In this document: positions 32,101-43,984 of the stretch, piece after piece
Layout: each line of letters starts with the position of its first letter
Position numbering within the stretch: the first letter of the stretch is position 1
Assembly: GCA_964016885.1 (NCBI GenBank)
Contig: OZ024754.1
Coordinates: 37,820,001-37,884,000 of the forward strand
Direction of reading: 5' to 3'
Length of the DNA stretch: 64,000 bases
Origin: Eledone cirrhosa
Lineage: Eukaryota
The notes under the pieces: generated by a model
Told to the model about the DNA's origin: nothing
Seen by the model: only the letters and a program-made list of their open reading frames with translations
Database searches by the model: none
Position numbers and translations under genes: made by a program

Positions 32101-33410
32101 AGAAGAAGCCGAAATTATAAATCGCACATACATACATACATACATACATACATATTTTATTCGAATTCGTAGAGATATCCGACTAAATACATAATTCTTT
32201 TTACAAGGATTTTCTACGAACAACATGGCTGAATACAGCAAGACCAGCAACATTAAGGAAGTACCGAACAAAAACGATGAGAAAGGTAAACAAAATGTAC
32301 ATACATACATACATACATACATGGTGGCTGCCAACTCGTTTTCGAGTACGGCCACTACTTCATATCCATGTAGAAGAACCCCTACCGATGCGCTGTACGA
32401 GTGTGACTTTTTAGTCCAGCCAGCGACTTGAAAACACTGGTACAAACACTACACTTGTGACAATTATTGACACATTGTGCTAGGCCCTTAGTACCATGTG
32501 ACGACAAGTGCAGAGAGATCTCCAGATATAAAGCAATATCTGTGCCGTGAAGCTTTTATAGTGAGCAAAGGCACTGCACAAAGCCAGTCCCACTCTCTTA
32601 ACCAAGATGGTATTTACCAAAAAGAAGAACAAGTCAACATCATTGGATACTATCAGGGTTGCAGGTGATATATCAGAGTTTTCCTTCTCCTAGAATTCTG
32701 CCTTGATAAAGGCTAAGGGGTCATCTCTCCCGGTGATTTTGGATGGCCATTGACTCTTAAGAGCTCCTTTGCCCTTTGACAGGTTTTGTTTTTAGTCCTG
32801 CAGGATGTCCAAAGTCACCCTCCTCACCAAGAAACCTTGGTGGGGTTGCCAGTTTAGTCGCCAACGACCCGACCATGGGACAGGTTGTACTGGGATACAT
32901 GTTACCAGTAGCACCAACTGGTGACCTGACATACATACATACATACATACATACATACATACATACATACATACATACATACATACATACATACATACAT
33001 ACATACATCTTTTATTCGAATTCGTAGAGGTATCCGACTAAATACATTATTCATTTTACAAGGATTTGCTACGACCAGCAAGGCTGAAGACAACGACATC
33101 AATAACATTAAGGAAGTACAGAAGGAAAATTACGAGAAAGGTAAACAAAATTTTTTCAGTTGTAGCTACAGAAGAAACCGAAATTATAAATCGCACATAC
33201 ATACATACATACATACATACATACATACATACATACATACATACATACATACATACATACATACATACATACATACATATTTTATTCGAATTCGTAGAGA
33301 TATCCGACTAAATACATAATTCATTTTACAAGGATTTGCTACGAATAACATGGCTGAACACAGCAAGACCAGCAACATTAAGAAAGTACCGAACAAAAAC
33401 GACGAGAAAG
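23103..33410 (+). CDS. Predicted array of 29 symmetric phase-1 micro-exons (2328 nt, 776 aa if all included) encoding GFAT...EK repeats
   Basis: AG/GT-bounded, stop-free segments: 23103-23180, 23332-23409, 23545-23622, 23699-23749, 23833-23907, 24018-24143, 24235-24312, 25058-25132, 25243-25371, 25463-25540, 25685-25762, 25866-25943, 26035-26112, 26273-26350, 26454-26531, 26623-26700, 26808-26885, 27142-27219, 27532-27609, 27846-27923, 30323-30400, 30820-30897, 31078-31155, 31427-31504, 31829-31906, 31994-32071, 32208-32285, 33063-33140, 33333-33410. Lengths are 78 (x24), 75 (x2), 51, 126 and 129. No expression data. Confidence 0.65.
28091..30173 (+). mobile_element. 5'-truncated R4/Dong-like non-LTR retrotransposon (RT + CCHC + restriction-like endonuclease) inserted in (CATA)n
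   Basis: Uninterrupted frame to TGA at 30092: WLDYQKAFDSV, GIFQGDSLS, FFVDD, CRLC..HIVASC, RHD, RPDIV..VEISCP..KEDIY. 81-nt 3'UTR. CATA repeats on both sides. Confidence 0.93.
30578..30738 (+). mobile_element. 161-bp 3' fragment of the same R4-like element
   Basis: Near-identical to 30013-30173, with the same gagaaaa|catac junction. Confidence 0.93.
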
Positions 33411-33660
33411 GTAAACAAAATTTATTCAGTTGTAGCTACAGACGAAACCGAAATTATAAATCGCATTTCTCTTGGAGTTGCGAATTTAATGATGATTTAT
33501 TTAATTGTTATAAAATGGCAATAACAAAAAAAATCCCTCCGTTAGCTACATGAACAGAATGAAGCTACACTGGGACGAAATACATCCGGAGCTAAATCAT
33601 TTCACAGCCAAACAAATACGCCAACAAGCGATGTTTGTTGAACGTAAAAATAAGATAAAT
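33411..33660 (+). mobile_element. Decayed N-terminal region of an R4/Dong-like ORF contiguous with the last array unit
   Basis: FSWSCEFNDDLFNCYKMA..(frameshift in A-run ~33526-33533)..PSVSYMNRMKLHWDEIHPELNHFTAKQIRQQAMFVERK. This resembles the W..E.N..L..CY...GY..RM...W....P.....L..Q motif of RLE-type LINE N-termini; recognised from memory, not searched. Confidence 0.6.
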
Positions 33661-34565
33661 ATTATTAATTGTAAGTCCCTCAGAACAAACATGGATTCAA
33701 CAACACGCGATACAGTTCGCCATAACAGTGCCTTGAAACAACTATGCCTGTAAAAAATTTGACACTCCGTGTACCATCTGAGTCTACCTCGACTGTTGTG
33801 GAAAACACTATCGATAATAGCACTATCGTTCGGCTACCTGCCCAGGCTCTGCTGCCTGCCAAACCGAAGAGGGCAAACTATGCAAATATCCGCCGCTCTC
33901 ATATATGTTTGTGGTAGAGCCTGTAGCAGTGGAGACTTCCAGCATTGTCGGACCCTGGACCACATGCCTACTCACTGCTATCGGAGCAGAGTTGGCTGCA
34001 CGCCGATGCGAGCCCCACGAGGTGAAGGGGCTGTTCTAGCTTGTCTCCCTCATCGTACTCTGGGACAATGTATCCAATCTCCATCCTGCCTGGCGGGACC
34101 CATAGGTGGAGTATAAGTTAGTTGGTGGTGAAGGATACTTGTTCGGACTTCACTTTTACACGTGTTTTGAGTGCCTTTTTGAATCCATTCATTTCATATA
34201 ATATATCAACAATAAAATCAATACACAAACACACTAAGAGATTAACCTCTCCGATGTCAAATGACTCAAAGGCCATAATATGAGCAAAGGCGAGCAGAAT
34301 CCCTACTTGACCTTACAAACCTGCTGTTCATGGAACAAATAGAGCTCTATCCAATAAAGGTTAAAAATGACATAAATCTCAGGTTCTAATTTTATTTTTG
34401 TATATATATTTATACACACGCACACGCACACACACACACACACACACACACACACACACACACACACACACACACACACACACACACACACACACACACA
34501 CACACATATATATATATATATATATATATACACACACACATATATATATATATATATATATATAT

Positions 34566-42504: not shown

Positions 42505-42997
42505 GAAATGAAAATTGATGGAGGCTGCGGAGTGGGTAGACCAAGAAAAACCTGGGACGAGGTGACAAAACCTGACCTTGCCCACCTACAGCTCTCTAAC
42601 ACAATGACACTGGATCGAGACCCTTGGCGCCATACAGTTGTACAGAAGACCCGACTACCATTGCATACAAACCTACAGTCAGTAGGCATCTCTTAACTCA
42701 ATGTACACCCCACCGCTACATCCTCCCTCTCCCGTTCCGTCCACTGTGTCAATGACACAACAATCCACACTGTAAGGTGGTCGTGCAGGAGTCACGGTGA
42801 AAAGTCTCCCAGTCCACACTCTAAAAGTGTTTGGTGTTAGGAAGGGCATCCAGCTGTAAAAAAACCCCCACCAGAGTCGCTTCCGTGCGAGTGAGACACG
42901 GTGTCTCGACCATTCCCGCATCAAATTGAACAAAACCGTCTAACCCATGCTAGCGTGGAAGATGAATCTTAAACGAAAATGGTGATGATGATGATGA
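42505..42997 (+). mobile_element. RTE 3' fragment plus RTE-related SINE-like tail
   Basis: GRPRKTWDEV motif, ggaagggcatccagctgtaaaa, ctaacccatgctagcgtggaagat and (GAT)n. Relatives at ~43990-44140, 51277-51720, 62445-62725 and 63078-63360. Confidence 0.7.
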
Positions 42998-43753
42998 TTT
43001 ATATATATATATATGTATATATATATATATATATATATATATATATATATGTGTGTGTGTGTGTGTGTGTGTGTGTATATATATTAGGTATAGGATTATC
43101 CTAGATGCAGTAATGATTAATTACTACCATTCTGCTCTGATGATACAGTGGTCACAGCATTTGATAATTGAGTTTTGCAAATAGTTGTAAATTTGCACAT
43201 AGCATAACTAGGCTGTATAACCACCGTGGAAACATTTGTAAGCACACAGAATAAATTACCTTTTTATGTCTACCTGTTATTATTCATTCTTTATATATAT
43301 ATATATATATATATATATATATATATATATATATATATATACAATAAAGTATGTCCATAGAATCATTTGATAAAATATATACATCATTTCCTCTCCCAAT
43401 CAGCATAATCAAACGCACAAAAGTCCAATTAAACAAGGCTATAAGATTAAAAGGCACACACACACACACATACACACACACACACACACACACACACACA
43501 CACACACATATATATACATATATATATATATATATATATCATCATATATATATGTATATATATATCATTATCATTATCATCATCATCATCATATATATAT
43601 ATATATATATATATATATATGTGTGTGTGTGTGTGTGTGTGTGTGTGTGTGTGTGTGTGTGTGTGTGTGTGTGTGTGTGTGTGTGTGTGTGGTTGACGGC
43701 TGAGAAGAAAGAGTAATCATATTCATATATTCATTAACTTTTCAGAAATTCCA

Positions 43754-43984
43754 ATGTCTGAAGAAGGTCAAGGCAGAAAGAAGGAACAGAAGAAAATAAG
43801 AATCTGGTGGTTTGAACGCTCAGAATTGATATTAATTTTCTTCACCCCTGTGATGCTCTTGTCCCAGACACTCTTGCATTACTACGTGGACTGGCGAATA
43901 GGAAAGAATTACTATCGAAAGCACAATACCGCCTTCTCTTCGACTTGTAACCATCGCCATCAGTCTATAAAAAATCATCATAAG
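43754..43984 (+). CDS. SLC46A1-like: SLC46-family (PCFT-like) MFS transporter, TM1/loop-1 exon
   Basis: MSEEG...ELILIFFTPVMLLSQTLLHYYVDWRI...STCNH...HK, parallel to PCFT EPLVFL...QYLWHRF...C. Phase-0 donor AAG|GTAAGA. Acceptor ttttcag ends at 43745. Confidence 0.8.

Follow-up and report, generated by a model that had tools for sequence, protein, structure and literature searches.

Does the array of micro-exons that precedes an SLC46-like transporter gene in Eledone cirrhosa encode a long, variable N-terminus of that transporter? The array and the gene lie in a window of 64,000 nucleotides (nt) of a 3.0-Gb genome (OZ024754.1 37820001–37884000; positions without a contig name are window positions). 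An original prediction, made from the letters of the window, had proposed that the array exons splice in frame onto the exon for the transporter's first transmembrane segment (TM1 exon). Our analysis favours this fusion: the array units are copies of the 5′ end of a retrotransposon, they lie in the first intron of the transporter gene, and they have been purged of stop codons in the proposed frame. We put the probability of this reading as a whole at about 0.7.

The TM1 exon (43746–43984, plus strand) has a phase-1 acceptor with its AG at 43744–43745 and a native ATG at 43754, and the spacing of 8 nt is as predicted. All 29 array units (23103–33410, plus strand) have AG…GT ends, lengths that are multiples of 3, and a stop-free phase 1 (phase 1 at both ends), and are separated by short introns bearing (ACAT)n tracts. 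Twenty-four units measure 78 nt, two 75 nt, and the remaining three 51, 126, and 129 nt, giving 2328 nt or 776 codons in total. When the 29 units were chained and continued at 43746, no stop was found, and the junction codon was Glu for 28 units and Lys for one. The in-frame, stop-free joining put forward originally is thus borne out, the splice itself being a prediction. The proposed N-terminus of ca. 776 amino acids (aa) corresponds to the codons in the array; however, the earliest in-frame ATG of the chain is codon 7 (23120, in the first array exon, 23103–23180), so that the extension ahead of the native Met would comprise at most 773 aa. This predicted tail is rich in Asn (14%), Lys (14%), and Glu (13%), and the chain has no hydrophobic stretch (maximum 19-residue hydropathy, 0.23).

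The shortest intron in the window array is 76 nt, and the period of the splice unit is ca. 160 nt. Introns divisible by 3 number 106 of 306 overall and 11 of 29 after dead donors; therefore, the open frame exists only after splicing. A single unspliced open reading frame (ORF) and in-frame intron retention after dead donors were ruled out by the same counts. The gap between the array and the TM1 exon, which had been described as ca. 10 kb of transposons and microsatellites, measures 10.3 kb and holds the remainder of the retrotransposon described below (33411–33819), ORF pieces bearing reverse transcriptase, and microsatellites (named by eye). The frame match by itself is a 1-in-3 chance, and the paralogues do not multiply it because they go back to one common ancestor.

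What the units are had escaped the original prediction. We searched the genome with a unit and its flanks, scored the best 40 of 1061 candidates, and analysed 19 copies. A single unit with flanks has at least 39 matches outside the window, on nine other contigs, with 91–92% identity. The dispersed copies hold one unit each, with an ACAT tract 69–156 nt before the matched stretch in 15 of 19, and all 19 continue into one ORF whose first codons are those of the unit and which starts at the ATG found at 23120. Both of two longer donor loci contain reverse transcriptase motifs and a CCHC-type C-x2-C...H motif, and one has, within the stretch fetched, an RPDI motif of the restriction-like endonuclease (RLE) type. 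By these alignments, the array unit corresponds to the end of the 5′ untranslated region and the ORF start (first 26 codons) of an ACAT-associated RLE-type retrotransposon, from which its splice sites and open frame were inherited. We tentatively take the element to be of the Dong/R4 type from an N-terminal motif and the reported activity of Dong-R4 in octopus. (ACAT)n may be its insertion target, as we read these copies. The final array unit (33282–33819, plus strand; exon 33333–33410) is still joined to the 5′ body of the element, with 81–92% identity to all 19 dispersed copies.

The array-type junction, in which ACAT is joined to the cut 5′ end, has 111 matches in the genome, all of them inside a 424-kb cluster, and the donor element forms such an array nowhere else in the 3 Gb. 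Pieces of other mobile elements stand in ACAT tracts around and in the array (21306–22970, 24400–24980, 30570–30740, and 32320–32930). Since the same pieces flank dispersed donor copies, the ACAT tracts are shared insertion hot spots. One array tract also holds the 3′ part of a related RLE-type retrotransposon (28092–30172, plus strand; 666-aa open frame, Pfam RVT_1 E 8e-19; 44–64% protein identity to the donor family).

The cluster consists of five close copies of the transporter gene in tandem and a truncated sixth, with two distant paralogues, D1 and D2, on the opposite strand. Arrays stand ahead of all six close copies (A1 to A6) and contain 6, 240, 44, 32, 12, and, in the window, 29 units (363 in total). 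A block at 19917–21163 lies upstream of all six arrays. It includes a promoter-like motif of putative function (20666–20678, plus strand), which is exact in four of the six array-bearing copies, slightly altered in the other two, and also present upstream of D1 and D2. It also includes a 5′ non-coding exon block (20875–21141, plus strand; donor GTAAGC at 21142) with 81–98% identity ahead of the six arrays, within which a possible inner acceptor would give a 35-nt first exon (21107–21141). D1 and D2 have no array, and the donor-bearing end of the 5′ block is homologous to the first exon of D2. The array lies between the 5′ block and the TM1 exon in five of the six copies and ahead of the 84-nt transporter exon in the sixth. 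Because the block is upstream of the arrays and also heads array-less paralogues, the array lies inside the first intron of the transporter gene.

Exon 1 of the window copy has an in-frame stop shortly before its donor and is non-coding, as is the first exon of D2. An acceptor 8 nt before the ATG is therefore the ancestral layout, for which no array is necessary, and the strong acceptor loses its value as an argument for array joining. A conserved Ile-Pro ahead of the Met of D2 was considered as a sign of upstream coding and rejected, because in D2 the donor of this exon is preceded, at a distance of three codons, by a stop. A signal-peptide exon upstream of the array was looked for and not found.

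The evidence that the units are read as exons comes from their stops. Among the 363 units, 321 retain both splice sites and 42 have lost one, mostly by GT to CT. An internal stop or frameshift occurs in none of the 321 splice-intact units and in two of the 42 splice-dead ones (one stop, one frameshift; Fisher P 0.005, or 0.014 when one junction stop is counted). We then counted stop gains over 354 of 362 units, which reduced to 279 distinct sequences and were placed on a minimum spanning tree, with the expectation taken from the mutation spectrum of the flanks; left out were three window exons of deviating length, the unit with the frameshift, and four misparsed units that read as normal open exons. 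The one unit outside this set of 362 is open as well. In the proposed frame, none of 402 distinct changes made a stop, against 12.6 expected (P 2.6e-6). In the other five frames, stop gains were 24 of 385, 22 of 369, 6 of 400, 30 of 363, and 10 of 388, against 34, 38, 8, 25, and 13 expected, respectively. The deficit persists in a tree-free minimum of 251 changes (P 3e-4) and in array A2 alone (149 minimum changes, no stops against 4.8 expected, P 0.008). Synonymous changes in the units proceed at about the flank rate, and the tree-based dN/dS is 1.2–1.6, depending on the mutation model. Thus, the residues of the units are free or mildly driven, whereas stops are disallowed. Tolerance of dead donors together with intolerance of stops is what would be expected of skippable exons ahead of a needed domain. 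The units are very probably spliced and translated, as judged from these substitution patterns. Exons changing 3–4 times faster than flanks (0.15–0.21 vs 0.04–0.07 from dispersed copies) had been considered as a sign of positive selection; this argument was dropped because the dispersed copies differ alike among themselves (0.048 vs 0.015) and were best-match picks.

As for what the array joins to, the stretch from the last unit to the TM1 exon has only the 65–98 nt before the acceptor in common among the five gene-bearing copies; therefore, there is no shared alternative last exon before TM1. In one main isoform at least, splicing of the array onto the TM1 exon is probable. Copy A4 also speaks for the fusion: although it has lost the TM1 acceptor and ATG, its large exon is open, its array is intact, and in-frame phase-1 AGs follow right after the deletion.

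Several observations weigh against this reading. The TM1 acceptor and ATG are wholly accounted for by a non-coding exon 1, as in D2. AG and GT are already present in 17 of the 19 dispersed copies, and 18 of the 19 are stop-free; the splice sites and openness of the array are therefore inherited and not evidence by themselves. The splice signals, with an AAG acceptor behind a short pyrimidine tract and a GTAAAC donor, are of modest strength. One intact-looking A2 unit ends in T and would make TGA with the next exon. The window array taken alone is not significant (66 minimum changes, 2.1 stops expected, P 0.12), gene conversion makes the tree counts approximate, and frame +2 also has a stop deficit (22 vs 38, P 0.002), so the null model is rough. 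In copy A4, the last exon stops nine codons early; A4 may be decaying. Full inclusion in A2 would require a 5000-aa tail. Finally, there is no read across the array–TM1 junction, and the only public runs found are genomic DNA. In three runs over 43692–44133, intron and exon were covered alike, one contig continued through the acceptor without a splice, and the rows listed showed neither a joint nor a loose end at 43746 (357 further loose-end rows exist). Given the even coverage and the unspliced contig, those three runs are DNA and uninformative on splicing. The fusion hypothesis is consequently favoured by the intron-1 position and by a stop purge limited to splice-intact units.

Three other explanations were weighed. 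The array could be a transposon-derived satellite in intron 1 that is removed whole, the transporter being made from exon 1 and the TM1 exon. That the splice-like sites and open frame derive from the element, that the ACAT tracts offer a ready amplification route, that array-less D2 has the same acceptor-then-ATG layout, and that 42 units with dead sites persist all agree with it. However, a satellite should have gained stops in the proposed frame as in the other five, whereas 0 of 402 changes did so; the sole internal stop and frameshift are confined to splice-dead units, and the element builds an array nowhere else in 3 Gb. We regard this explanation as unlikely.

Somewhat less likely again is that translation of the array chiefly yields a repeat protein that lacks a functional transporter; it would either terminate within the element body or, by skipping to the 84-nt exon, gain a short anchor. 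Such a protein is suggested by copy A5 (OZ024754.1 37807700–37817200), in which exon 1 and 12 intact units are followed by no more than the final three exons of the transporter, open and in phase; its product is possibly a chain of repeats held by a short membrane anchor, as far as the frame tells. Read-through of the last donor in the window would also lead to a stop after ca. 50 codons, with AATAAA at 34211 and 34353. The element body is, however, absent or cut in A1, A4, and A5, late units are also stop-free even though truncating a pure repeat there would cost little, and the TM1 exon itself is strongly selected. The most improbable of the three is a Dscam-like choice of one or a few mutually exclusive units per transcript, giving a short and variable tail. 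All units are symmetric, the ATG is kept or lost independently by most types (14 of 29 window units have one), and the 5000-aa A2 tail is hard to credit, all of which would suit such a choice. Choosing one of 200 would nevertheless make stops nearly free, yet A2 alone is purged (P 0.008), and introns of 76–87 nt are of a size that can be excised individually.

We therefore favour fusion of the array to the transporter, which may have arisen as follows. A Dong/R4-like element would have landed, in sense orientation, in an ACAT tract within the first intron of a divergent SLC46-like gene. The first 26 ORF codons at its 5′ end happened to be framed by an AG, together with a branch-like site, and by a GT, in the phase of the TM1 acceptor, so that the inserted piece could become an exon. 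Copies would have multiplied by unequal exchange between ACAT tracts; the whole gene would then have been duplicated in tandem, and the arrays would have grown or shrunk independently (from 6 to 240 units). The predicted mRNA would contain the non-coding exon 1, many or all array exons, and the TM1 exon, in this order. Translation from the ATG of the element would add a disordered Lys/Glu/Asn-rich tail of up to 773 aa in the window copy; exon skipping would give shorter tails, and splicing of exon 1 straight to TM1 would give the plain protein. Stops would have been purged since truncation would remove the transporter, the amino acids being otherwise free. As MFS transporters have a cytosolic N-terminus and a signal peptide is absent here, the tail is predicted to be a disordered chain in the cytosol. 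The data show the origin of the units, their position, phase, and copy numbers, and the purge of stops; the splices, the translation, the topology, and the part played by the ACAT tracts are inferred from them.

The transporter itself continues with a large exon of 850 nt (52955–53804, phase 0 to 1), an 84-nt exon (58354–58437, phase 1 to 1; located via an Octopus bimaculoides protein and present in 6/6 copies), a 157-nt exon (59185–59341, phase 1 to 2), all on the plus strand, and a last exon just past the window (OZ024754.1 37884948). The exon sizes (231 coding, 850, 84, and 157 nt) presumably match the layout of human SLC46A1. SLC46 transporters have 12 membrane helices; hydropathy gave 11 segments here on a model without the 84-nt exon. 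Language-model features placed the protein at 0.98 in MFS_1 clusters and NCBIfam MFS matches were weak (E 6e-6); a Pfam scan of the transporter exons gave no match. Neither the large exon nor one 42-aa array peptide gave a match in protein searches, the latter being weak evidence. Four of the eight top matches looked up are named: an uncharacterised MFS protein of O. bimaculoides and three PCFT-like or SLC46A3-like proteins. The nearest named proteins belong to O. bimaculoides and O. sinensis. A 54-sequence profile dominated by relatives matched PCFT (PDB 7bc6) at E 4e-121, with the next best at 1e-8, and no PDB chain was matched by a four-sequence profile built from the cluster only. The large exon is 16–25% identical to non-octopus relatives. 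These comparisons point to a very divergent, fast-evolving SLC46-like member of the MFS. SLC46 members are proton-coupled transporters, cGAMP and steroid conjugates being among the substrates of the family. Folate is carried by PCFT/SLC46A1 (PDB 7bc6), and muropeptide transport by SLC46A2/A3 is described in a preprint (bioRxiv 10.1101/2022.09.29.509906). A substrate cannot be carried over from the family to so divergent a gene.

The large exon is open in 5/5 copies with dN/dS of ca. 1.2. In the last 55 codons of the TM1 exon, five paralogues show 41 non-synonymous changes against one synonymous (P 1.6e-5), mostly in the first outer loop, which is under diversifying selection. From this selected loop, an immune or chemosensory role may be guessed at. 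Comparison of N-termini with relatives, which had been recommended, did reveal repeats, though not ones made from the donor element. The TM1 exon of D1 (OZ024754.1 37626500–37627150, minus strand) opens with ca. 150 codons of Glu-Asn-Gly-Lys-Glu repeats unrelated to the donor element; D1 has no Met before TM1 and an ATG four codons ahead of a GT donor near 37632250 of the contig. Three short acidic repeats are present at the N-terminus of the O. bimaculoides protein, whose gene models lack an array. Repeat N-termini thus recur in this transporter subfamily independent of the donor element, a point in favour of a repeat tail in the window copy. The large exon of D2 (OZ024754.1 37997150–37997920, minus strand) has a frameshift and stops, and D2 is probably a pseudogene. 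In P0156, an O. sinensis model, the first 57 residues match an element repeated many times in this region; this transposon-derived N-terminus may be real or an annotation error.

The copies differ in further details. The middle of array A3 contains a fused-in copy of the exon 1 end, donor included (OZ024754.1 37742395). Array A2 (OZ024754.1 37658000–37717600) contains ca. 40 units of the same type with a GT-to-CT donor, amplified within higher-order repeats. In four paralogues, but not in the window copy, part of the large exon (codons ca. 24–85) recurs on both strands within the intron ahead of it, forming hairpins (OZ024754.1 37643011–37643312, 37725695–37725990, 37758615–37758899, and 37795967–37796244), which could be a small-RNA source or an editing substrate. 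Between A5 and A6, a large near-perfect inverted duplication occupies 1–13734 (centre ca. 6860; e.g., 3534–5884 vs 7830–10180); its arms are 98–100% complementary, and it is a candidate palindrome or assembly artefact.

The locus combines known kinds of event, exonisation and tandem exon amplification. In exonisation of Alu or LINE (long interspersed nuclear element) sequences, an intronic mobile element supplies splice sites, usually for one weakly included exon; here, the start codon is supplied too, and one piece was amplified to 363 copies and kept stop-free. The closest architecture appears to be that of SmPoMuc of Schistosoma mansoni, which also has a repeated exon with introns, microsatellite spacing, and a gene cluster; the accessible part of its description gives 27-nt exons, 1-kb units, and a mucin product and mentions no transposon origin (PMC2576457). 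In contrast, the present array has 75/78-nt exons in ca. 160-nt units, of which a gene can hold as many as 240; they stem from the ORF start of a retrotransposon and precede a multi-pass transporter. Schistosome micro-exon genes (MEGs) share with the array small symmetric exons in series, a dN/dS close to or slightly over 1, and a recent lineage-specific expansion; all of them have a signal peptide, are coded mostly by micro-exons, and have transposons enriched nearby but not as the exons (PMC4350168). With 321 symmetric units of 51–129 nt, the array resembles MEGs in exon symmetry, most MEG exons being smaller (3–81 bp; PMC10526429). The array product is not a MEG, however, because the signal peptide common to all MEG products is absent, and a full transporter follows. 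Dong-R4 LINEs are described as active in O. vulgaris (PMC13282606) and RLE clades with microsatellite targets are known (PMC4640811). The donor element is like Dong-R4 in its single ORF, reverse transcriptase, CCHC finger, RLE-type motif, and microsatellite-adjacent 5′ end (15/19). The gene resembles the SLC46 family in its MFS features and PCFT-like and SLC46A3-like nearest named relatives, and differs in its recent tandem cluster, diversifying first outer loop, and predicted long N-terminal tail. In the literature searched, which had subscription journals outside its coverage, nothing was found on this cluster or on a transporter bearing an exon array of transposon origin.

That the array serves as length-tunable, diversifying coding exons, giving each member of this positively selected cluster a cytosolic tail of 150 to ca. 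5000 residues that is adaptive, for instance as spacer, scaffold, or decoy in immune or chemical sensing, and convergent with the D1 tail, is a tentative and rather doubtful extension. If the fusion is real, few young examples of new protein sequence made out of a transposon would be as clear, with live and splice-dead copies providing an internal control. The repeat tail would exceed the transporter itself in length, and the outer loop of the cluster is strongly diversifying. Because repeat masking would conceal such exons, similar cases in cephalopods may go overlooked.

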